From contig JBHLMQ010000056.1 of the NCBI GenBank assembly GCA_048938005.1, positions 1 through 20,211 on the forward strand: 20,211 nucleotides of DNA, read 5' to 3'. The notes beneath the pieces are model-generated. The model worked only from the letters and a program-made list of their open reading frames with translations. It had not been told where the DNA came from and did not search any database. The DNA is from Promethearchaeota archaeon. Its GTDB lineage: Archaea > Asgardarchaeota > Lokiarchaeia > Sigyniarchaeales > SOKP01. This document shows, piece by piece, positions 4,078 to 18,822 of this stretch. Both the position numbers and the translations under genes were made by a program. How positions within the stretch are numbered: the stretch's first letter is position 1; each line of letters starts with the position of its first letter.

Positions 4078-4671
4078 TTGATTGTGATGGTAACCTGTCC
4101 GAAATGTGGAGAAGAGTACTCATTAGGTAGAAAAATTTATCACAGCTGTGAAGGGTTTTCAATAGAACACGGTGTTATTTTTAATGACGATCGTGTAAAT
4201 CGTCCTTGGAATTGTCATTCAATGGATGAAGTCGATAAAAGAATTTTAAATATATTACAAAAAAATGACAAAATTTCATATCGAGAGTTAGCAGAAAAGT
4301 TGAAATTAGCAGCAAGCACAATTCATAATAGAGTAAAAAAGATGATTGAAGAGGAAATAATAAAACAATTTGGAGCTATAGTAGATCCAGTGAAAATTGG
4401 CTATAATACTATAGCTATAGTAGGGCTCTCAGTTGATCCAACAAAAATGAATAAAATTGCAGAGAAAATAGCATCATATAATGAAACTCAACTTGTAGCG
4501 ATATCATCTGGAGATCATGATATTATAGCTCAGATCATCGCTAAGGACGAAAAGACACTCTGGAACTTTATAAATATAAAAATCAAGACAATAAATGGAA
4601 TAAAACCTCAAATTCATGTATCTAACTTTTTAGATATATATAAATCAACGCAATCAATAAAAATTGTATAG
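4078..4671 (+). CDS. Lrp/AsnC transcriptional regulator with N-terminal Cys/His (putative metal-binding) domain; ATG at 4087 is the likelier start
   Basis: DEVDKRILNILQKNDKISYRELA..LAASTIHNRV HTH, VDPVKIGY linker, SSGDHD RAM domain. N-terminal CPKC..HSC..WNC. Confidence 0.9.
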   Translation: MIVMVTCPKCGEEYSLGRKIYHSCEGFSIEHGVIFNDDRVNRPWNCHSMDEVDKRILNILQKNDKISYRELAEKLKLAASTIHNRVKKMIEEEIIKQFGAIVDPVKIGYNTIAIVGLSVDPTKMNKIAEKIASYNETQLVAISSGDHDIIAQIIAKDEKTLWNFINIKIKTINGIKPQIHVSNFLDIYKSTQSIKIV

Positions 4672-4696: not shown

Positions 4697-5158
4697 TTAT
4701 TCATCATCAAATTGTTTTACAATTGTAAACCAAAAATTCACTATTGAATTAATAATTCTATAAAAATCCTTCATTTCTAAAGGTTTGATTACATAACAAT
4801 TAGCATGGAGATTGTAAGCTTTTATTAAATCTTCTTTTGCATCTGATACTGTTAAGATTACCACGGGAATCCGTTTTATTTTATCATCATGCTTGAGTTC
4901 TTTTAGTACCTCAAATCCATTCATCTTTGGTAAATTTAAATCTAAAATGATTAGGTTAGGGGGTTTGGCATTAGAGAATTTTCCTCTCCTCTTTAAAAAA
5001 TCAATAGCTTCAACGCCATCCCTAACAATATCTAAAGTACTGACAATTTTATTCTCTTTAAGAACTTGCTTAGTAAGTTGAATGTCTGCAGCATTATCTT
5101 CTACGAGTAAGATGTGAGCCTTAATTCTTGTATATTCATTTACCATAATATATACCAC
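4697..5158 (-). CDS. Single-domain response regulator, Rcp1/RcpA type; start may be ATG at 5146
   Basis: LLVEDNAAD, DGVEAIDFL, phosphoacceptor IILDLNLPK, VVILT, ANCYVIKP, FWF tail. Abuts the kinase stop (TAGTG overlap). Confidence 0.92.
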   Translation of the reverse strand: MVYIMVNEYTRIKAHILLVEDNAADIQLTKQVLKENKIVSTLDIVRDGVEAIDFLKRRGKFSNAKPPNLIILDLNLPKMNGFEVLKELKHDDKIKRIPVVILTVSDAKEDLIKAYNLHANCYVIKPLEMKDFYRIINSIVNFWFTIVKQFDDE

Positions 5159-6225
5159 TAGTCTTTAATTTTTTCTGGAAAAATTGTAAAGAAGAAGGTT
5201 GATCCTTTCCCAATTTCTGATTCTACCCATATTTTTCCACCATATCGTTGAACTATCTTTTTACATATAGGTAATCCTATCCCTGTACCTGGATATTCTT
5301 CTTTAGTATGTAGCCGGTAAAAAATGTTAAAAAGCTTACCAAAATAGTCTGATTCAATACCTATACCATTATCTTTTACAGAGAATAACCACTTATTATT
5401 AGTTTTGGTTACCCCTATATGTATTCTAGGTGTTTCTTGCTTTCGGAATTTTATGGCATTACTAAGTAAATTCTGAAATAATTGTATAAATTGAGATTTA
5501 TCTACTTTTAATATTGGCATTTCATCATAAGTTATAATTGCACCACTTTCTTTTATTGATTCATGTAAATTAAACAGGGCATCCTGTAAAATAACCTCAA
5601 GGTTAGTTAATTTAGGAGGTTGAGCGTGTGTTGTGATTCTTGAATATGATAATAAATCTTTTATAAGGGTATTCATTTTTTTTGCTCCGTCTGTTATAAA
5701 GTGTATAAATTCTTTACCATCCTTATCAATTTTATCTTGATATTTATCTTCTAGAAGTTGAGAAAAGCTTACAATTGCTCGTAAAGGTTCTTGCAGATCG
5801 TGTGATGCTACATAAGCAAATTGCTGTAAATCTTCGTTAGAGCGTCTTAAATCCTCCATAATTTCATTAAATTCAATTTCTCTTTTTGAAATATGCTCAG
5901 ATAGGAATGATACTACTATTCCAACAATAATTAATGAAATACCTCTCAGAAAATTATTTATTGTCTCTAGATTAAAAATCCCATAATCCTGAATGATATG
6001 AAAAAGTATTAATATTACAGCTAAAAAAGCAGGAACAATTAAACCTGTCTTTTTCCACCAGAGACTTGCCAAAATTGAAGGGAAATAGAAAAAATGCGCC
6101 ACTAGGATAGAAGTTTTAAATATTAACTCGAAATAATAAATTAATAAACACGAGAGGATAATTAATATTAAAATAATCACAATTCTTATTCTTTCTTCTT
6201 TAAATTTCGAATTCATTACAATCAT
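5158..6225 (-). CDS. Membrane-bound sensor histidine kinase with Cph1/bacteriophytochrome-type kinase core but no photosensory module
   Basis: About four N-terminal TM segments, H-box LQQFAYVASHDLQEPLR, N-box QNLLSNAIKF, G1 DNGIGI, G2 GTGIGL, GKGSTF. Confidence 0.93.
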   Translation of the reverse strand: MIVMNSKFKEERIRIVIILILIILSCLLIYYFELIFKTSILVAHFFYFPSILASLWWKKTGLIVPAFLAVILILFHIIQDYGIFNLETINNFLRGISLIIVGIVVSFLSEHISKREIEFNEIMEDLRRSNEDLQQFAYVASHDLQEPLRAIVSFSQLLEDKYQDKIDKDGKEFIHFITDGAKKMNTLIKDLLSYSRITTHAQPPKLTNLEVILQDALFNLHESIKESGAIITYDEMPILKVDKSQFIQLFQNLLSNAIKFRKQETPRIHIGVTKTNNKWLFSVKDNGIGIESDYFGKLFNIFYRLHTKEEYPGTGIGLPICKKIVQRYGGKIWVESEIGKGSTFFFTIFPEKIKD

Positions 6226-6534: not shown

Positions 6535-7419
6535 ATAGAGGATAAAAAACTCAATCTACTATTAATTGAAGATAATACTGCTGATGTGCGTCTTATTGAA
6601 GAATTATTAAAAACTTCCGCAGAATTCAAATTTGATTTAAAATCATATCCTAGACTATCTGAAAGTTTGAATAGTCTTAAAACTAGAAGCTTTGATATTA
6701 TTATATTAGATTTAACTTTGCCAGATAGCGATAGAGAGACTACTTTAGAAAGAGTTTTAAGTGTGATAGACACAATACCTATAATTATTTTAACTGGGTT
6801 GGATGATAAGGAATTTGCATTGCAATCTCTTCAAAAAGGAGCACAAGATTATATGGTAAAAAGTGAGCTTAATGGACCAAGTTTAACACGGGCGATCTTG
6901 TATGCTATTGAACGGCACAGAATTGAAAGTGAAAAGTTAATGGGAAAGGTTATAAAAATACCACTTGATAAAAAAGATAAAGAAATCCTTAATCTACTAC
7001 AAAATAATTATAGAATCTCTTATAAGGAATTAAGTAAAAAAGTGAATCTTGCCGCTAGTACTATACATAATCGAGTACAAAATATGATAAAAGAAGGAAT
7101 CATAAAAAAATTTGATACTCTCGTAGATCCACTTAAAATCGGATTTGAATCTATAGCCATTCTTGGTCTCTCTGTTGATCCATTGAGATTGGACGATATA
7201 GCAAAAAAACTAGCCATTTATGATGAGATACAATTAGTTACATCCTCAACTGGAGACCATAATTTATTAATAAAAATTATTGCGAAAGATGAGAAAAATC
7301 TCTGGAGATTTATTAATGAAGAACTTAAAACACTAGATGGAATTCAACTACCAATACATGTGTCAAGTTTTATAGATATTTTTAAAATGACTCATAAGAT
7401 TAATTTTAGAATTGAATAA
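6535..7419 (+). CDS. Response regulator with Lrp/AsnC DNA-binding output (REC-Lrp fusion); true start is upstream of the track's GTG 6586, probably ATA at 6535
   Basis: In-frame upstream codons give EDKKLNLLLIEDNTAD (REC beta1 and acidic pocket). IILDLTLPD, ILTG, GAQDYMVK follow, then a full Lrp domain (LAASTIHNRV, VDPLKIGF, STGDHN). AGGTGA at 6523-6528. Confidence 0.88.
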   Translation: MEDKKLNLLLIEDNTADVRLIEELLKTSAEFKFDLKSYPRLSESLNSLKTRSFDIIILDLTLPDSDRETTLERVLSVIDTIPIIILTGLDDKEFALQSLQKGAQDYMVKSELNGPSLTRAILYAIERHRIESEKLMGKVIKIPLDKKDKEILNLLQNNYRISYKELSKKVNLAASTIHNRVQNMIKEGIIKKFDTLVDPLKIGFESIAILGLSVDPLRLDDIAKKLAIYDEIQLVTSSTGDHNLLIKIIAKDEKNLWRFINEELKTLDGIQLPIHVSSFIDIFKMTHKINFRIE

Positions 7420-7650: not shown

Positions 7651-8988
7651 TTAAGGGAAAATTCCTCTCAACTCAATTGCTCTGGCTAATCTTGAAATAG
7701 CAATAATATATGCGGCTATTCGAAGAGTAATATTCTTTTCTTTTGATAGATTATAAACTTCCTCAAATGAACTTACAAGAATATTTTTTAACTCTTGGTT
7801 AATTCTATCTAATTTCCAAAAATAACTATGAATATCTTGAATATACTCAAAATAAGAGACACATAAGCCTCCAGCATTAGCAAGAATATCAGGGACTATT
7901 ATTATCTCCTTTTTTTTCAAAATATTATCGGCTTCTGGAGTAGTTGGTCCATTAGCACCTTCTAATATAATTTTACAATTAATTTTAAAAGCATTTGATT
8001 GGGTTATTTGGTTTTCTACTGCTGCTGGGATTAAAATGTCACATTTAAGCGTTAATAAATCTTCATTAGTGATAAATTTATAATTTTTATTTTGAAAATC
8101 TTTGAAATAGTTATTCCTATCTCTCCATTCTAATAACTCTTTAATATTTAAGCCTCCTTCGGCATATAAACCTCCGGTAATATCCGACACAGCAATAATC
8201 TTACAACCTTTTTCATATAAAATATTAGCAATATGTCCCCCAACATTGCCAAATCCTTGAATTACAATATTCTGGGTTCTTAGATCTATATCTATTTTAT
8301 TGCATAAAGCTTCGAGAACAAAAAATAAACCCATCCCTGTTGCCGTTTCTCTCCCAACTGAACCTCCTATTTCTAATGGTTTCCCCGTCACTACTCCAGG
8401 AATAGCTCTCCCTTTATGCATAGAATAGGTGTCCATAACCCAAGCCATAATTTGCGGACCTGTATTAATATCTGGAGCAGGAATATCCATATCCGGTCCA
8501 ATAATATTTATGATTTCTGTTGTATATCTCCTAGTTAGCCTTTCTAATTCCTCTTTTGATAATTTTTTTGGATCTACACATACACCTCCTTTTGCTCCTC
8601 CAAGAGGTAATCCCAATAAGCTGCTTTTCCAAGTCATCCAAGTAGCTAGTGCTTTAACTTCATCAAGATTAACATTTGGTGCAAATCTAATACCTCCCTT
8701 GCCAGGACCCCGAATAGTTGAATGTTGTACTCTGTAACCTTCAAAAATCTCTAAATCTCCATCATCCATCTTAATTGGAATTGAAACAATTAAAGAACGT
8801 TCTACTCTTTTGAGATATTTCCTAATATTATTACTTAATCCAATTTTTTCGGCAACAATATCGATTTGCTTTTTTGCCATTTCAAATAGGTTTGTCTCAA
8901 TTAAAATTTCTTTCTCTACAATTCCAGAAACATCAATTTGATCAGGTGTAACAAGTGTTATTTGATCCTTTTTTTTATTTTCTAGCAT
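7651..8988 (-). CDS. gdhA: Glutamate dehydrogenase (Glu/Leu/Phe/Val family), paralog 1 with ~30-aa N-terminal extension
   Basis: GPGKGGIRF, MTWK, GGAKGG, PAPD, TGKP, QGFGNVG, EGANGP, NAGG.CVSYFE. Confidence 0.93.
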   Translation of the reverse strand: MLENKKKDQITLVTPDQIDVSGIVEKEILIETNLFEMAKKQIDIVAEKIGLSNNIRKYLKRVERSLIVSIPIKMDDGDLEIFEGYRVQHSTIRGPGKGGIRFAPNVNLDEVKALATWMTWKSSLLGLPLGGAKGGVCVDPKKLSKEELERLTRRYTTEIINIIGPDMDIPAPDINTGPQIMAWVMDTYSMHKGRAIPGVVTGKPLEIGGSVGRETATGMGLFFVLEALCNKIDIDLRTQNIVIQGFGNVGGHIANILYEKGCKIIAVSDITGGLYAEGGLNIKELLEWRDRNNYFKDFQNKNYKFITNEDLLTLKCDILIPAAVENQITQSNAFKINCKIILEGANGPTTPEADNILKKKEIIIVPDILANAGGLCVSYFEYIQDIHSYFWKLDRINQELKNILVSSFEEVYNLSKEKNITLRIAAYIIAISRLARAIELRGIFP

Positions 8989-9403: not shown

Positions 9404-10654
9404 TCATAACCATCCTCTCAACTTCATAGCTTCTATAACTCGGTCAATAGCTATTATATAAGCTCCCATTCTGTTATGTGTTTCGTATTTTTTAGATTGT
9501 TCTACAGTAGAACGGTAAGCTCTTGTCATAACTCTATCTAATGCTTCAAACACCTCTTTTTCGGTCCAAAAATAACGGTAATAACCTTGAACCATTTCGA
9601 AGTATGAGACTGTAACTCCTCCTGCATTGCATAAAAAATCAGGAATAACATCAATGCCTTTCTCAAAAAGGATTTTATCTGCATCTGGAGTTGTAGGACC
9701 ATTGGCAAGTTCAGCAATGATCTTACAATTAATATTGTTTGCGTTTTTATTAGTGATAACATTTTCAAGAGCGGCTGGAACTAATACATCACATTCTAAT
9801 TCTAATAATTCTTCATTTGAAATTTCATCAGTTCCTTTTAAACCAACCACCGATCGTGTTTTCTCTTTAAATTCTGCTGCTACCCAGGGATCAATTCCAT
9901 CTTTATTAAAAATGCCACCTTTCGAATCAGAAACTGCAATTATTTTACAATTAAAGTCATCTTTTAATAGTTTTGCTGCCCATGATCCAGCATTTCCATA
10001 TCCTTGAATTACTGCTGTTGCCCCATTTAAGTTTAAACCAACATCTTTAGCTGCCTCCCTAATACAATAAACACCACCTTTAGCTGTAGAAATTGATCTA
10101 CCTGCACTACCACCTAATGGTAAAGGTTTTCCAGTGATAACGGAGGGTGCATGATGACGTACTATGCGTTCATACTCATCTTGCATCCAAGCCATGATTT
10201 GCGGATTTGTATAAACATCTGGAGCTGGAACATCAATATTAGGGCCAATAAAATCAGCAAGTTGTCTAATATAGCTTCTTGCCAGAATTTCAAGTTCTCG
10301 ATTACTCATAGTTCTTGGATCACATATTATTCCACCTTTTGCTCCTCCTAGAGGAATATCAACACAAGCTGTTTTCCAAGTCATCCAAGCACTTAAAGCT
10401 TTTACAAGAGAAGCGCTTTCATCTGGGTGCCATCTAATTCCTCCTTTCATAGGACCTCGAGCAGAATTATATTGAGATCTAAAGCCTTTAAACGTCTTTA
10501 AAGACCCATCGTCCATTTTCATTGTAATTTTTATCACTATAAACCTCTCGGGTTCACTCAGAGCGTTGTAAACCTCAAAATCGGTATCACTGATCTTACA
10601 AGCGTCAGAAAGTTGTTTCTGAGAAATTTTGAAAGGGTCTAAAATTTCACTCAT
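9404..10654 (-). CDS. gdhA: Glutamate dehydrogenase, paralog 2 (resembles Thermococcales-type GDH)
   Basis: GPMKGGIRWHP, MTWK, GGAKGG, PAPDVYT, QGYGNAG, AVSDSKGG, NAGGVTVSYFE. Confidence 0.95.
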   Translation of the reverse strand: MSEILDPFKISQKQLSDACKISDTDFEVYNALSEPERFIVIKITMKMDDGSLKTFKGFRSQYNSARGPMKGGIRWHPDESASLVKALSAWMTWKTACVDIPLGGAKGGIICDPRTMSNRELEILARSYIRQLADFIGPNIDVPAPDVYTNPQIMAWMQDEYERIVRHHAPSVITGKPLPLGGSAGRSISTAKGGVYCIREAAKDVGLNLNGATAVIQGYGNAGSWAAKLLKDDFNCKIIAVSDSKGGIFNKDGIDPWVAAEFKEKTRSVVGLKGTDEISNEELLELECDVLVPAALENVITNKNANNINCKIIAELANGPTTPDADKILFEKGIDVIPDFLCNAGGVTVSYFEMVQGYYRYFWTEKEVFEALDRVMTRAYRSTVEQSKKYETHNRMGAYIIAIDRVIEAMKLRGWL

Positions 10655-10870: not shown

Positions 10871-13603
10871 TCATTTCTCAATGTGGGCAAATTTGTTTTT
10901 TAAATATTCATGAATAGCTTTTGCTGCTCGTTTTCCTGACCCCATTGCCGAAATCACAGTAGCAGAACCCGAAACTATATCTCCCCCCGCATAAACTCCT
11001 TCTATATTGGTTCTACTATTTTCATCAGTTTCGAGATATCCCCATTTAGTTAGTTTTAAGTCAGGAATTGATTTAGTTAAAATAGGATTAGCAGTAGTAC
11101 CAATACCTAATAATACAGTGTCAGTTTCAATGAAAAATTCAGAATTTTCAATTGGTATGGGTCTTCTCCTTCCTGAATCATCTGGTTTACCTAAACGCAT
11201 TTTAATAGCTTGAATCTGTTTTACATTATCATTTTCGTCTCCTATAAACCTTAAAGGACTAGATAAGAAATGAAATTCAATTCCTTCTTCTAATGCATGG
11301 TGGTATTCTTCTTTTCTTGCAGGCATTTCTATTTCCGATCTTCTATAAACAACTATCACTTTTTTTGCCCCTAATCGCTTAGCTACTCTGGATGCATCAA
11401 GAGCGGTATTTCCACCACCAATAACAGTTACGATTTCTCCTACTTTAATTGGTGTATCATATTCTGGAAATCTGTAAGCTTTCATTAAATTAGCTCTTGT
11501 GAGGAATTCATTAGCTGTTAAAACCCCATTTAAAGTCAATCCAGGGATTTTAGGAAACATAGGGAGTCCTGCTCCTACTCCGATGAAAAAAGCTTCGAAT
11601 CCCATATCCCTTAAATCTTGAAGAGACAAAATTTTGCCAATAATTTTATTATACTTTACTTTAACATCAAGCATTTTTAATGTTTCAATTTCATCTTTAA
11701 CAATCTCTTTTGGCAATCTGAATTCTGGAATACCATAAGTTAATACACCGCCACCTGCATGGAATGCTTCAAAAATAGTGACATCATACCCTTTTCTGGC
11801 AAGCTCTCCTGCACAAGTTAGTCCTGCGGGTCCTGAACCGATAACAGCAACTTTAATATGATTCGGAGCTTTACACTCTGGGCATTCCTTTAACTGATTT
11901 TCTCGTTCCCAATCAGCAATAAATCTTTCCAAATATCCGATCGCGATTGGTTCTTCTAACTCATTCATTAAACATGTTTCTTCACATTGAACTTCTTGAG
12001 GACAAACTCTTCCACAGATAGCGGGTAATAAATTATAGTCTTTCATCACTCTAAGTGCATCAATGTATTTCTCGTCTCTAAGTAATCTTATAAATCGGGG
12101 GATATCAATATTAACTGGACATCCAGAAACACAGTGAGGAAAACCACATTGTAAACACCTCTTAGATTCCAATTTTACCATTTCTAATGTTAATCCTTTG
12201 GGTACTTCCTGAAAATTAGTAACTCTTATATTTGGATATTGTTCCGGCATTTTTGGCCTTCTTAGCTCCTTATAGAACTTTTCTTTTGATAGACTAACTC
12301 TTTTTAATCTATTAAAACTCTCATCTTCCTCACTTATTTCTTTTGATTCAATTAAGTGAAGATCTAATGCTTTTTGGAATAAATCCGCACCTTTTTTAGT
12401 TCTGATAATGACTGTTGACCAATCTGACTCAGATCCGAGAGAACCAACAGCAATATCTGCTTGTTCGGATGTAAAATCACCACAGAAAAAACATCCTAAT
12501 CTACTATAAGTTTTGAGTTTTTTTACAGGTATAGTATAAATGGAATGATCTTTATGAAAAGCATAAAAGCGTCCTTTATCGATATCCATTTTTTTAATAA
12601 CATTAGGAGATATTTGAAATTCAATTTTTAAAAGATTTTTTATATTTTCATAATCAAATGATTCCATACAGAACAGTCCAATTTTTAAAGCAATATTATC
12701 ATAAAAAGGTTTGTTAAATGGATAGAAACTTATTTTTTTTAAAGCTTCCATCATACAGGGCGTACCAACTATTGCAATATTCTTGTAATCTCTTGAGCTA
12801 TGCAATAATTTCAAAGATGGGGTATTAGTGTATTTTGTACCAGCTGTTCTTAATAATTCCTCTTCATTATCAATTAGGACTGGTAAGGGTTTGTGCGGCT
12901 CATCTGAAACGCTGACAGCTATAGCAGCATCTATGAGTTTTTCTTGGAATGCGGTTTTAAGTAAAGATGTGACAATCCCACCATTTTGAGCCAATGTTTT
13001 AATATTCTCATTAGTAGTTTGAGCAGAATATATGTTATAATAATGGTTTATTTGCTCTGCAAACTTTAAGTCTGCATCCTTACTCTCAATATATTTTTTT
13101 AATATTTTAGGAAAGAATGATCTTGGACAACAAGAAAAGCATAGACCACAATTGAGACAAAGATCTTCATTAATATCAAATGAGCTACTTGTGTAATTGA
13201 TAGCATTTACAGGACAAACTGAATCACATAAACCACACCCACAACATAAATTTTTGTCTCTAATTATTGAAACATTCGGGAATAATCCTTTGTTTTCATT
13301 GGATTCTATAAACTTATGAAAAAATCTTGATTGTTCTCCTAAGAATTCTAATGACCCTAATTCTCTTAGATATTCAATATTATAAATCAGATTTTTTTCG
13401 GGAACATCTAACTCACTATTCAATTTCTGAAGATCTAAAGCCCCAATCTCTTTAATTTTTTTTAGGATTTCCTGTCTTTCTTTTTCAGCTTCCTTTATTG
13501 AATTGATGAATGCATTATATTCACCTTCATTGTATCTAGCCTGTTGTAGAATTCTATCCTTATTTTCTATGAATACCTTAACCAATGGCGTTTGTTCTTC
13601 CAT
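10871..13603 (-). CDS. Fusion protein: helical/wHTH-like N-terminus + 2x[4Fe-4S] + FrhB/FpoF-type F420-binding domain + NfnB/SudA/GltD-type FAD/NADPH oxidoreductase
   Basis: CCGCGLCDSVCP and CLNCGLCFSCCP. FrhB motifs AQNGGIVT, AGTKY, VGTPC, IGLFC, GCFFCGD, ADIAVG. NfnB motifs CLQC..CVSGCP, CGRVCPQE.QCE..C, GSGPAG, GIPEFRLP, GGGNTALD, VYRR, AGGD. ATG at 13603 is preferred to GTG 13618 because AGGTGA lies at 13620-13615. Confidence 0.9.
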   Translation of the reverse strand: MEEQTPLVKVFIENKDRILQQARYNEGEYNAFINSIKEAEKERQEILKKIKEIGALDLQKLNSELDVPEKNLIYNIEYLRELGSLEFLGEQSRFFHKFIESNENKGLFPNVSIIRDKNLCCGCGLCDSVCPVNAINYTSSSFDINEDLCLNCGLCFSCCPRSFFPKILKKYIESKDADLKFAEQINHYYNIYSAQTTNENIKTLAQNGGIVTSLLKTAFQEKLIDAAIAVSVSDEPHKPLPVLIDNEEELLRTAGTKYTNTPSLKLLHSSRDYKNIAIVGTPCMMEALKKISFYPFNKPFYDNIALKIGLFCMESFDYENIKNLLKIEFQISPNVIKKMDIDKGRFYAFHKDHSIYTIPVKKLKTYSRLGCFFCGDFTSEQADIAVGSLGSESDWSTVIIRTKKGADLFQKALDLHLIESKEISEEDESFNRLKRVSLSKEKFYKELRRPKMPEQYPNIRVTNFQEVPKGLTLEMVKLESKRCLQCGFPHCVSGCPVNIDIPRFIRLLRDEKYIDALRVMKDYNLLPAICGRVCPQEVQCEETCLMNELEEPIAIGYLERFIADWERENQLKECPECKAPNHIKVAVIGSGPAGLTCAGELARKGYDVTIFEAFHAGGGVLTYGIPEFRLPKEIVKDEIETLKMLDVKVKYNKIIGKILSLQDLRDMGFEAFFIGVGAGLPMFPKIPGLTLNGVLTANEFLTRANLMKAYRFPEYDTPIKVGEIVTVIGGGNTALDASRVAKRLGAKKVIVVYRRSEIEMPARKEEYHHALEEGIEFHFLSSPLRFIGDENDNVKQIQAIKMRLGKPDDSGRRRPIPIENSEFFIETDTVLLGIGTTANPILTKSIPDLKLTKWGYLETDENSRTNIEGVYAGGDIVSGSATVISAMGSGKRAAKAIHEYLKNKFAHIEK

Positions 13604-13604
13604 C

Positions 13605-14489
13605 TTAAGGTGCTTCACCTTTTGATTTTTCTAATGCTCTACATTCCTGTTCATATTGTTCTAATGATTCTTTCTCTTGATCAAGAAACCTATTAGCACG
13701 ATTTAAAAGATTATCAAAATCAATAATGTGCCCATCTACATCTGGACCATCAACACATGCAAATTGAATTTCTCCAGAATGAGTTGAAAATCGACATCCT
13801 CCACACATCCCTGTGCCATCAATCATTATTGTATTTAAAGATACAAAAGTTTTTACCTTCGGTAATTCCTTATTACCATTTGTCATAATGGAAACATTTT
13901 TCATCATAATCAAAGGTCCAATCGCAATAACAGCACTTATTTTCTCTTTTTTTAATAAATCTTGAAGTGGTTTAGTTACAAATCCTTTTATTCCCTCGCT
14001 TCCATCATCTGTACAAATAATAAATCTGTCACTAACAGCAGCTATTTTATCTTTCCAGAATATTAAATCTTTCGTACGAGCACCAATAATAGAAATAATT
14101 TTGTTTCCTACCCTTTTTAATTCTTTTGCTTGGGGATAACATTCAGCTATTCCAACTCCCCCACCAATAATTATAACAGGAGATTCATATTTTTCAATGT
14201 GAATTCTATTACCTAATGGCCCAACAACATCTAGAATATTGTCACCTACATTTTGATTTGAGAGAAGTTTTGTAGTTTTTCCTACCACTTGAAAGACAAT
14301 CGTTATTACCCCTTGATCTGCATTATAATCCGCTATTGTTAATGGAATTCTTTCTCCTGTTTCATTTATTCTAATGAGTATAAAATTCCCAGCAAATGCC
14401 TTTTTAGCAATTATTGGAGTTTTTAGGTCCATCTCAAATAAAGTCCCACTATTACCTAATTGGATTTTTTTTAGAATTTTGTAGGGCAC
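13605..14489 (-). CDS. nfnA: NfnA/SudB (PyrK-like) FAD/NAD-binding [2Fe-2S] small subunit
   Basis: GERIPLTI, VGKTT, GPLGN, GGGVGIA, TDDGSEG.KG, GPLIMM, DGTGMCGGCR..ACVDGP (Asp + 3 Cys cluster ligands). GTG start; stop is 1 nt from the next ATG. Confidence 0.9.
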   Translation of the reverse strand: MPYKILKKIQLGNSGTLFEMDLKTPIIAKKAFAGNFILIRINETGERIPLTIADYNADQGVITIVFQVVGKTTKLLSNQNVGDNILDVVGPLGNRIHIEKYESPVIIIGGGVGIAECYPQAKELKRVGNKIISIIGARTKDLIFWKDKIAAVSDRFIICTDDGSEGIKGFVTKPLQDLLKKEKISAVIAIGPLIMMKNVSIMTNGNKELPKVKTFVSLNTIMIDGTGMCGGCRFSTHSGEIQFACVDGPDVDGHIIDFDNLLNRANRFLDQEKESLEQYEQECRALEKSKGEAP

Positions 14490-14848: not shown

Positions 14849-16414
14849 ATGTTTATGGATACAATAATCGTTTTAGATTTTGGTGGGCAATATGCACATC
14901 TAATAACTCGCCGAATAAGAGATTTAGGAGTGTATTCTGAAATCTTACCATTTGATGTTGATCTTGAAAGAATAAAAACTATTAAACCTAAAGCAATAAT
15001 TCTTTCGGGTGGACCAGGCAGTGTATATGAAGAAGGGAGTCCCCAACTCAGAAGAGAATTTCTTAATTATACAATAAACAATAAAATTCCCGTTTTGGGA
15101 ATATGTTATGGTCATCACCTAATTATGCAAATTCAAGGAGGAAAAATTGAACTTAAGCAAACTAAAGAGTATGGCAGAGCTAATCTCAAGATATTAGAAC
15201 CAAACTTATTATTTGACTCATTAGATAAGGAAGAAATCGTGTGGATGTCACATGGAGACCAAATCACAGAAATAGCTAAAGGATTTAAAATATATGCTAA
15301 AACTGAAACTTGTCCTATTGCCGCTTATGGAAATCAAGAAAAATTATTATTCGGTGTCCAATTCCATCCAGAAGTTGCAAATACTCCAAAAGGAAATAAA
15401 ATTTTAGAGAATTTCATATTTATAATTGCCAATTGTAAAAAAGAATGGAAATTAGAAGGATGGATAAATACTGCAATTGAAGAAATCAAAAAAGAAATAG
15501 GCCCAAATAATAGGGCTATTCTGGGACTAAGCGGTGGCATTGATTCTTCAGTAACTGCTGTTTTGCTACATAAAGCAATAAGTGATCGATTACATTGTAT
15601 CTTTGTAAATAATGGAGTATTAAGAAAAAACGAAGAAATTCAAGTCCAAAAAACATTTAAGGAGAAATTGAAATTTGAGAACTTCCATTATATAGATGCC
15701 GTAGATATTTTTCTAAAAAGGCTTTCTGGTGTTGAAGATCCTGAAGAAAAACGTCGAATAATTGGCCATACATTTATAGAAGTATTTGAGGATAAAACCA
15801 TTGAATTAGAAAAAGCTTATCCAGATATTAAATATCTTGCTCAAGGTACTATCTATCCTGATCGTGTAGAAACAAGTGCTACGAGTAAAGCTTCAGTGAA
15901 AATAAAATCTCATCATAACATAACACTCCCCGAAAATATGAAGTTGGAATTAATCGAACCATTAAAAGATTTATATAAAGATGAAGTAAGAAGAATTGGC
16001 ATGAAATTAGGCATCCCAAAAGAAATCATCTTAAGACATCCATTCCCTGGGCCAGGATTAGCCGTTAGAATTATTGGTTCTATTGATAAAGAGAAGCTGG
16101 ATATACTCCGAAAAGCCGACGAAATATTAATTGAAGAAATCAAGAAAGCTGGAATTTATGAAAATCTTTGGCAAGCTTTTTGTGTATTTCTACCTTTAAA
16201 GACTGTTGGTATTATGGGTGATTACCGAACCTATGAATATATATGTTCAGTTCGAGTAGTTGAATCTTTAGATGCCATGACTGCTAATTTTGCTAAATTA
16301 GATTGGGATTTATTGGAAAAGATCGGAACCCGGATTATAAATGAGGTTAAAGGGATAAATCGTGTTGTTTATGATATATCACATAAACCACCAAGCACCA
16401 TAGAATATGAATAA
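14849..16414 (+). CDS. guaA: GMP synthase (glutamine-hydrolysing), single-chain
   Basis: LDFGGQY, ILSGGP, GICYG (catalytic Cys), QFHPE, SGGIDS, IKSHHN, HPFPGPGLA, KPPSTIEYE. Confidence 0.97.
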   Translation: MFMDTIIVLDFGGQYAHLITRRIRDLGVYSEILPFDVDLERIKTIKPKAIILSGGPGSVYEEGSPQLRREFLNYTINNKIPVLGICYGHHLIMQIQGGKIELKQTKEYGRANLKILEPNLLFDSLDKEEIVWMSHGDQITEIAKGFKIYAKTETCPIAAYGNQEKLLFGVQFHPEVANTPKGNKILENFIFIIANCKKEWKLEGWINTAIEEIKKEIGPNNRAILGLSGGIDSSVTAVLLHKAISDRLHCIFVNNGVLRKNEEIQVQKTFKEKLKFENFHYIDAVDIFLKRLSGVEDPEEKRRIIGHTFIEVFEDKTIELEKAYPDIKYLAQGTIYPDRVETSATSKASVKIKSHHNITLPENMKLELIEPLKDLYKDEVRRIGMKLGIPKEIILRHPFPGPGLAVRIIGSIDKEKLDILRKADEILIEEIKKAGIYENLWQAFCVFLPLKTVGIMGDYRTYEYICSVRVVESLDAMTANFAKLDWDLLEKIGTRIINEVKGINRVVYDISHKPPSTIEYE

Positions 16415-18504: not shown

Positions 18505-18822
18505 TTATTCATAGATATGGAGAGGATTAAATTTTGGTCCATGTGTTTGAATACCATTAATTCTCATATTATAATCACAATTCCACTTATAGTTTGTATT
18601 TTCTTTTAGTTCTATATCACTAGCTTTTTCAATAATAGATTCAATAGATCTTAATTCTCTTTTCATTAGTTCCATTGGTATTATACTTGAATTACAATTC
18701 CATTTGTATATTTTATGCTTCTTCTCAAAGATTTTACCAAAAACAATCGTATTGTTTTCACAATCATGACAAATAAACCTCCCATAAGAATATTCTGCTT
18801 CACAAACAGGACATTTTATCAA
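18505..18822 (-). CDS. Small Cys/His-rich protein homologous to the N-terminal domain of the Lrp at 4078
   Basis: CPVCEAEYSYGRFICHDCE..FGKIF..KWNC with a second YKWNC. TTG start preceded by GAGGT. Confidence 0.8.
   Translation of the reverse strand: MIKCPVCEAEYSYGRFICHDCENNTIVFGKIFEKKHKIYKWNCNSSIIPMELMKRELRSIESIIEKASDIELKENTNYKWNCDYNMRINGIQTHGPKFNPLHIYE

Follow-up and report, generated by a model that had tools for sequence, protein, structure and literature searches.

The 20,211-nucleotide window analyzed here, from a Promethearchaeota archaeon of the Lokiarchaeia (contig JBHLMQ010000056.1), contains a predicted two-gene operon for an NfnAB-type, flavin-based electron-bifurcating oxidoreductase, in which the large subunit NfnB is fused to an FrhB-type module for the deazaflavin coenzyme F420. 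Flavin-based electron bifurcation has Nfn as its model enzyme, and to our knowledge its low-potential branch ends at free ferredoxin in every characterized case. The explanation that best fits the sequence of this locus, operon assignment included, is that of an Nfn with a low-potential branch hard-wired to F420, and we consider it somewhat likelier to be right than wrong. If true, it would be a natural case in which bifurcated electrons have been re-targeted by wiring an Nfn branch to an F420 reductase.

Both genes lie on the minus strand. The upstream open reading frame (ORF; 13605-14489, 294 codons) is nfnA, and the ORF that follows it (10871-13618) holds 915 open codons, to which all residue numbers below refer. 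The fusion gene likely starts at the ATG at 13603, giving 910 amino acids: this codon, M6 of the listed ORF, is nearly invariant among 85 full-length homologs, the alignment from which motif conservation was read throughout. It sits one base past the nfnA stop codon (TAA, 13605-13607), with GGTGA just upstream, and with this start the two genes would not overlap. Along the frame, Pfam places a Fer4 dicluster at 118-167 (hit by several Fer4 models, the best with E 1.2e-5 and only PF00037 reaching its gathering score), FrhB_FdhB_N (PF04422) at 196-272 (75 bits), FrhB_FdhB_C (PF04432) at 279-430 (144 bits), Fer4_20 (PF14691) at 465-575 (131 bits), and Pyr_redox_2 (PF07992) at 589-895 (135 bits). 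An AlphaFold2 (AF2) model of the whole chain had a mean pLDDT of 84.2 and a pTM of 0.80.

A preliminary description of this DNA had read one uninterrupted frame joining a 2x[4Fe-4S] plus FrhB half (about 13250-12270) to a complete NfnB/SudA-type half (12260-10871), with nfnA immediately upstream and all expected cluster cysteines and nucleotide-binding motifs in place. The ORF and the order of its Pfam domains bear this out, and the two halves match residues ~118-452 and 453-915. The motifs named there are invariant or nearly so among the 85 homologs: in the ferredoxin domain C125/128/131/135 and C154/157/160/164, which belong to two invariant CxxCxxCxxxCP motifs (125-135 and 154-164); in the FrhB part C288/317/376/379; in the NfnB part C488/491/496/500 and C535/539/545/549; and likewise the GxGxxG-type motifs (residues 594-599 and 734-737). 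The two halves meet exactly. The alignment to FrhB ends at residue 452 (3zfs_C residue 269 of 281), the alignment to NfnB starts at residue 453 (4ylf_B residue 4), and the segment from 433 to 464 is 32 residues long in 84 of the 85 homologs. Judged by its sequence, the large subunit is a complete FpoF-like protein that runs directly into a complete NfnB, with no extra linker.

The fusion is real, conserved and restricted to one lineage. A word-index search listed 120 protein clusters, 90 of which are full-length fusions with at least 93% query coverage and 57-91% identity; the named clusters among them come from Promethearchaeota/Lokiarchaeota metagenome-assembled genomes and are labeled 'NADPH-dependent glutamate synthase'. 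The junction (12226-12331) was also checked in assembled contigs (records 6, 22, 27 and 12) and is bridged by contigs from 4 of 4 runs, belonging to 4 studies of sediment and mangrove metagenomes, with 0-6 differences. This comparison also listed numerous loose ends, along with four short joints whose sides span 20-23 letters and which each come from one contig; we attribute both to different strains or related organisms in the metagenomes and not to rearrangement. Mean column identity was 0.69-0.74 across the ferredoxin and FrhB part (FrhB, 0.74) and higher in the NfnB part (Fer4_20, 0.79; Pyr_redox, 0.84). A chimeric junction, raised in the preliminary description, is ruled out by the bridging contigs and by the recurrence of the fusion in many assemblies; given the independent assemblies, the four studies and the fixed junction length, we rejected an assembly chimera or gene-calling artifact as having next to no likelihood.

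The C-terminal 463 residues most closely resemble the large subunits of three bifurcating Nfn/Xfn enzymes of solved structure, namely NfnB of T. maritima (4ylf_B, 568 bits, target residues 4-462), NfnI of P. furiosus (5jca_L, 525 bits) and Xfn (495 bits), compared with 274 bits for a true GltD. They also score 576 bits against the TIGR01316 ('gltA') model, whose cut-off is 472. The cysteine motifs align with those of 4ylf_B and 5jca_L; in Nfn, the clusters are ligated by Asp plus three Cys and by Glu plus three Cys. Foldseek gave TM-scores on target of 0.90-0.92 for this half (0.92 for T. maritima NfnB); with the whole model as query, the NfnB half alone was matched, among the matches listed. 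The large subunit is thus predicted to contain a full-length NfnB/SudA-type part that binds two [4Fe-4S] clusters and FAD and has an NADPH site. The NfnA partner scores 360 bits against NF004862 (cut-off 220), 301 bits against the small subunit of P. furiosus NfnI (5jca_S) and 253 bits against 4ylf_A, and its motif DGTGMCGxCR...FACVDGP aligns with the solved small subunits, so that an NfnA-type gene adjoins the fusion gene. The next best NfnB match in the source genome (G000) is only 38% identical, and no other close NfnB is present there.

The best solved relative of residues ~118-452 is the F420-reductase subunit of the Ca. Ethanoperedens carbon monoxide dehydrogenase (CODH; 8riu_B, 187 bits); the module scores 184 bits against genuine FrhB (3zfs_C, target residues 5-269 of 281, four cysteines aligned), 163 bits against the F420-reductase subunit of Ca. 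Ethanoperedens Fwd (8rja_E), and 150-153 bits against the FpoF-like half of F420-dependent sulfite reductase (Fsr; 7np8, 7npa). The ferredoxin domain (118-167) is of the clostridial 2x[4Fe-4S] type and aligns with that of 8riu_B. C288/317/376/379 align with cysteines of 3zfs_C, 6qii_B and 8riu_B, and we take them to be the ligands of the FrhB [4Fe-4S] cluster. Both FrhB_FdhB domains and these four cysteines place the module in the FrhB family. In addition, two ferredoxin-type clusters stand N-terminal to FrhB, and two extra N-terminal [4Fe-4S] clusters are what define the FpoF/Fsr-N type (PMC3448663).

The extent of the protein had been described correctly for its ferredoxin, FrhB and NfnB parts; a further, N-terminal domain (~6-112) had been missed. 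It is conserved and confidently folded (pLDDT ~90 both in the whole-chain model and alone), has no Pfam match, and is predicted to consist of a long helix and, after it, a unit of three helices. The three-helix unit superimposes on Lrp/AsnC helix-turn-helix domains with a middling VIA-align Z score of 6.9 (root-mean-square deviation 1.7 A over 50 residues); Foldseek found nothing at E <= 0.001, and Atlas pointed to winged helix-turn-helix (wHTH) clusters (score 0.85). The modeled resemblance to an Lrp/AsnC-type winged helix is no more than a lead. Two stand-alone FrhB paralogs in the genome carry this extension ahead of their ferredoxin and FrhB domains; one of them (C12:47831-49333) is 42% identical over residues 13-456 and adjoins genes of the heterodisulfide reductase (Hdr) type, while the other (C18:19793-20968) lies near Hdr-type genes.

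To place the fusion within its phylum, 400 Asgard genomes were searched. The search yielded 58 full-length matches in 53 genomes, all of them in the window's own lokiarchaeial family (f1), where the fusion occurs in 53 of 135 genomes and 7 of 13 genera; a few more genomes of the family hold copies cut by contig ends. None was found in the 265 other Asgard genomes among the two best candidates scored per genome, and two closed genomes of the sister family (L061, L062) have only an ordinary nfnA-nfnB pair, 58% identical. Among 150 matches listed from 1.84 billion representatives of 50%-identity clusters, P0082 alone spans the whole query; two short ones, P0136 and P0194, align with the N-terminal part alone and probably represent fragments.

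Synteny points to where the module came in. In the best 29 fused loci, from which synteny was counted, nfnA lies directly upstream of the fusion in every case (29/29), and a glutamate dehydrogenase gene (gdh) lies directly downstream, within 1.5 kb, in 15; in one locus a gene resembling isocitrate/isopropylmalate dehydrogenase takes its place. Six of six genomes of the same genus that lack the fusion have the order guaA, nfnA, ordinary nfnB and gdh, with an nfnB 70-72% identical to the C-terminal half of the fusion, and guaA flanks nfnA in fused and unfused loci alike. Because unfused relatives carry an ordinary nfnA-nfnB pair at the same locus, we conclude that the module entered an operon that already existed, between its nfnA and nfnB genes. 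A maximum-likelihood tree of NfnB parts was built from 50 hand-chosen rows (the source genome, the best 29 fused loci and 20 fetched loci). All 31 fused rows fell into one clade (support 100/99), three unfused rows of one genus were nested within it, and the six unfused rows of the window's genus formed a separate, well-supported clade. This topology gives two changes, which is consistent with one gain and one later loss of the module. Fused and unfused nfnB occur together in G216 and G168.

Other features of these relatives were noted in passing. Some genomes carry two copies of the fusion (G175, in tandem at C211:65363-70870; G225; G208; G265; G239). Tandem arrays of two to three gdh paralogs follow nfnAB in relatives G194 and G182 (L052, L053). 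A genome of another family (G057, family f16) has on a short contig (C205:817-2223) an nfnB 70% identical to the C-terminal half, which could be binning contamination or gene transfer.

The preliminary description had also asked for an F420 pathway in the genome, and one is present. The synthesis genes cofG (381 bits), cofD (310 bits) and cofE (280 bits) all score above curated cut-offs, a cofH-like gene neighbors cofG, and F420-dependent Mtd is encoded as well (354 bits). F420 genes were considered as a marker tracking the fusion and rejected, because cofE is family-wide (above cut-off in 133 of the 135 genomes). Four Mer-like genes of the source genome all fall below cut-off, as do its best FrhA candidate (147, cut-off 392.5) and two Fno candidates (100 and 83, cut-off 149.8). 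With neither FrhA nor Fno above cut-off, another route to F420H2 is needed. The genome further encodes about ten diverged FrhB paralogs (on contigs including C12, C63, C78, C18 and C4), which adjoin HdrA/HdrB/HdrC/MvhD-type genes and genes for subunits of 2-oxoacid:ferredoxin oxidoreductase. Judging from these gene clusters, FrhB modules are attached to other ferredoxin-linked systems here as well, a pattern known from Ca. Ethanoperedens (PMC11493965).

Three more fusions turned up in the same genome. A 605-amino acid protein (C5:4495-6312, minus strand) joins FrhB_N/C to an NfnA/PyrK-like DHODB_Fe-S_bind domain, a second and different FrhB fusion, and is encoded directly downstream of genes for 2-oxoacid:ferredoxin oxidoreductase subunits (POR gamma and others). 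An 843-amino acid GltD-like protein (C53:2210-4741; Fer2_4, Fer4_Nqo3, Fer4_20 and Pyr_redox_2) is encoded next to Etf-like genes, and a 920-amino acid one (C13:2753-5515) combines Fer4, Fer4_20, Pyr_redox_2 and an HdrB-like CCG domain.

What has been observed comprises the domain architecture and how well it is conserved, its descent from an orthologous nfnAB locus and the presence of F420 genes; beyond that, we infer an electron path, substrates and a direction as follows. NADPH, for instance from the adjacent glutamate dehydrogenases, would give a hydride to the bifurcating FAD of the NfnB part. One electron would pass through the [2Fe-2S] cluster and FAD of NfnA to NAD+. The low-potential electron would travel over the two NfnB clusters to the fused ferredoxin domain, and from there through the FrhB cluster to the FrhB FAD, rather than to free ferredoxin. 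The FrhB FAD would gather two electrons and hand a hydride to F420, for a net reaction of 2 NADPH + NAD+ + F420 -> 2 NADP+ + NADH + F420H2. The midpoint potential (E0') of F420 is about -340 mV (as given in PMC11493965 and PMC10667645). Since F420 is far less negative than ferredoxin, such a reaction would strongly pull the oxidation of NADPH; re-oxidation of NADPH would in turn pull amino-acid oxidation, which would suit the adjacent NAD(P)-linked dehydrogenases, and the F420H2 would feed the F420-dependent steps (methyl branch) of the tetrahydromethanopterin (H4MPT) Wood-Ljungdahl pathway. More tentatively, in a fuller form that we regard as possible and rather doubtful, this would be the first Nfn-type bifurcating enzyme with F420 as an obligate partner, a single complex that carries one [2Fe-2S] and five [4Fe-4S] clusters besides three flavins to couple the NADPH, NADH, F420 and possibly ferredoxin pools, and that arose once, when an Hdr-type FrhB subunit was inserted between nfnA and nfnB. 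In that form it would supply the missing link that joins the oxidation of amino acids to the F420-dependent part of the Wood-Ljungdahl pathway in Lokiarchaeia.

Several points weigh against a branch dedicated to F420. The potential of F420 requires no bifurcated low-potential electron, and an ordinary Fno-type enzyme could carry out NADPH:F420 exchange; as F420 reduction needs no bifurcation, the selective logic set out above is an argument and not a result. The module falls short of the cut-offs of the frhB equivalog TIGR03289 (227, cut-off 331.5), the FpoF equivalog NF040616 (149, cut-off 475) and PRK09325 (252, cut-off 269), so that the FrhB part is a member of the family and not an ortholog of a tested F420 enzyme. 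The module is also dispensable: single genera contain both fused and unfused forms, and it has been lost from one nested subclade. The phylum-wide distribution reflects the two best candidates scored in each of the 400 genomes. Lastly, free ferredoxin could remain an electron partner of the ferredoxin domain. This last point opens the chief rival, which we think unlikely: an enzyme serving four carriers, in which the added 2x[4Fe-4S] domain still serves ferredoxin and FrhB is an additional, alternative entry or exit. Depending on redox state, such a hub might also link F420H2:ferredoxin or F420H2:NADP+, or confurcate F420H2 and NADH to NADPH. The clostridial type of the added domain would suit it, as would the two genomes that keep fused and unfused copies side by side, suggesting related but non-identical roles; and the fusion, as the only close NfnB in the source genome, might need to do the work of an ordinary Nfn too. 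However, confurcation of F420H2 and NADH to NADPH would, by our estimate, run uphill at usual in-vivo ratios, and in the precedent of known structure the FrhB-like subunit uses its ferredoxin domain as a docking wire and not as a ferredoxin site (PMC11493965).

The hard-wired F420 branch has two further competitors. The FrhB-like domain might not use F420 at all, acting instead as a flavin and iron-sulfur transfer or storage module for another acceptor, or having a mainly structural part. Its scores below the FrhB and FpoF equivalog cut-offs speak for this, together with the presence in the family of a non-F420 enzyme, 7-hydroxymethyl chlorophyll a reductase (5dqr_A, a weak match) and with the roughly ten diverged FrhB paralogs of the genome; yet the module matches proven F420 reductases end to end at ~184-187 bits with FrhB motifs conserved, and the genome encodes F420 biosynthesis and Mtd, with cofE found throughout the family, which makes a role without F420 improbable. 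In the second, the enzyme might not bifurcate and would then be a plain NADPH:F420 oxidoreductase or the input subunit of an F420- or NADPH-dependent glutamate synthase. The score above the TIGR01316 'gltA' cut-off, the database label 'NADPH-dependent glutamate synthase' and the neighboring glutamate dehydrogenases all lean that way, and putative F420-dependent glutamate synthases (FGltS) have been proposed (PMC3448663). We nonetheless find a non-bifurcating enzyme very improbable. A Pfam scan of the window's ORFs revealed no GltB-type gene in the window, and hence no such catalytic subunit in the operon; all 29 fused loci have NfnA as the partner; the closest solved proteins are the Nfn/Xfn large subunits, well ahead of true GltD; and the proposed FGltS has another architecture, joining an FrhB-like part to a GltB-type subunit, where here the partner domain is NfnB and the partner gene nfnA (PMC3448663).

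Set beside known systems, the enzyme belongs to the Nfn family by sequence, partner and operon, and to the FrhB family at the level of Pfam, not at that of the FrhB or FpoF equivalogs. It shares with NfnAB of T. maritima and NfnI of P. furiosus an NfnA, a whole NfnB, all cluster and nucleotide motifs, and the order nfnA then nfnB. It differs from them in ~450 extra N-terminal residues (the wHTH-like domain, 2x[4Fe-4S], and FrhB with FAD/[4Fe-4S]) and in a low-potential acceptor that is probably F420 rather than free ferredoxin. A precedent comes from Ca. Ethanoperedens thermophilum, whose FrhB-like subunits dock through their ferredoxin domain on the distal cluster of CODH and Fwd, so that these 'ferredoxin' enzymes then reduce F420 (PMC11493965). 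In CODH zeta and FwdI (8riu_B, 8rja_E), too, a 2x[4Fe-4S] ferredoxin domain stands N-terminal to an FrhB-like FAD/[4Fe-4S] part, and the principle would be the same, with an F420 reductase attached at the end of the enzyme that serves ferredoxin; in contrast to the fusion in its Asgard host, with its extra N-terminal domain, they are separate subunits.

Fsr, which the preliminary description rightly cited as a precedent for an FpoF-like half fused to a reductase, carries ferredoxin and FrhB domains in one chain with its reductase half, but that half is a siroheme sulfite reductase with neither a bifurcating flavin nor an NfnA-type subunit. Transhydrogenases of the Stn/NfnABC type (8oh5, 9bov, 9n5u; 263-339 bits) are bifurcating NAD(P)H enzymes with long fusions that include an NfnB/GltD-like module; there the fusion is to formate-dehydrogenase-like or other modules with NuoE/F-like partners, and no FrhB or F420 link is involved. 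ANME-1 HdrA with an inserted NfnB/GltD domain likewise recombines an NfnB-like module with an iron-sulfur flavoprotein, in organisms with many FrhB paralogs; its host protein is HdrA, and the FrhB proteins are separate genes (PMC9012536 and PMC12054007).

The pairing of FrhB with a GltD-like domain is not unique. When ten longer representatives, chosen by length and number of matching stretches out of the 150 listed, were scanned with Pfam, two held FrhB and GltD-like domains in other arrangements: P0233 (855 amino acids) has a GltD-like part followed by FrhB, and P0163 (821 amino acids) has a GltD-like part between FrhB_N and FrhB_C. They differ from the fusion in domain order, in a GltD-like part only 34-39% identical, and in a truncated Fer4_20 match. 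About nine clusters are of the P0233 type, with the JGI label 'glutamate synthase beta subunit-like oxidoreductase/coenzyme F420-reducing hydrogenase', and we know of no characterization of proteins like P0233 or P0163. For the FrhB-NfnB fusion itself, a full-text literature search (supplements and subscription papers lay outside it) returned no description, in agreement with the preliminary description, which knew of no characterized enzyme of this architecture; the sources included PMC9012536, PMC3448663, PMC11237513, PMC10667645, bioRxiv 10.1101/726976, PMC12054007 and PMC11493965, each in the part available.

If the predicted coupling to F420 is true, the enzyme would be a candidate link in uncultured Lokiarchaeia between NADPH from amino-acid oxidation and F420H2 for CO2 reduction, a question that bears on models of Asgard syntrophy. 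At one and the same locus, close relatives have either the fused operon or the ordinary one, a natural with/without pair that makes the question directly testable.

The features of the locus are collected in Table 1.

Table 1. Genes around the nfnA-fusion operon and domains of the fusion protein (positions in the window; residues of the 915-codon ORF).
Feature	Position	Strand	Residues	Remarks
guaA (GMP synthase)	14849-16414	plus		divergent; marker of syntenic locus
nfnA	13605-14489	minus		294 aa; small subunit, FAD/NAD-binding and [2Fe-2S], predicted; matches to NF004862, 5jca_S, 4ylf_A
Fusion gene	10871-13603	minus		910 aa (likely start); wHTH-like, ferredoxin, FrhB and NfnB parts
N-terminal domain	13283-13603	minus	6-112	long helix, then winged-helix-like fold (predicted)
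2x[4Fe-4S] ferredoxin domain	13118-13267	minus	118-167	Fer4 matches
FrhB-type F420-reductase domain	12263-13048	minus	191-452	predicted FAD and [4Fe-4S]; PF04422, PF04432
NfnB N-terminal domain (Fer4_20)	11894-12226	minus	465-575	two [4Fe-4S] clusters, predicted; PF14691
NfnB FAD and NADPH domains (Pyr_redox_2)	10934-11854	minus	589-895	PF07992, TIGR01316
gdh1 (glutamate dehydrogenase)	9404-10654	minus		downstream of fusion, same strand; PF00208, PF02812
gdh2 (second glutamate dehydrogenase paralog)	7651-8988	minus		

The window has a G+C content of ~29%. The operon and the two glutamate dehydrogenase genes share the minus strand, and guaA lies upstream in divergent orientation. Its product is a single 521-amino acid polypeptide in which the glutamine amidotransferase (GATase) and synthetase parts are fused; a fused GMP synthase is the bacterial and eukaryotic arrangement, and split genes are common in archaea. 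Two ORFs on the plus strand (766-1257, 163 amino acids; 1332-2177, 281 amino acids) matched no Pfam family at E <= 1e-4. Elsewhere in the window, two plus-strand genes (4078-4671 and 6586-7419) encode Lrp/AsnC-type regulators with odd N-termini, one cysteine-rich and zinc-ribbon-like, the other a response-regulator receiver domain. Both lie near a histidine kinase gene (5158-6225) and a stand-alone receiver-like ORF (4697-5158), and the cysteine-rich N-terminal pattern is repeated in a small ORF on the minus strand (18505-18822).

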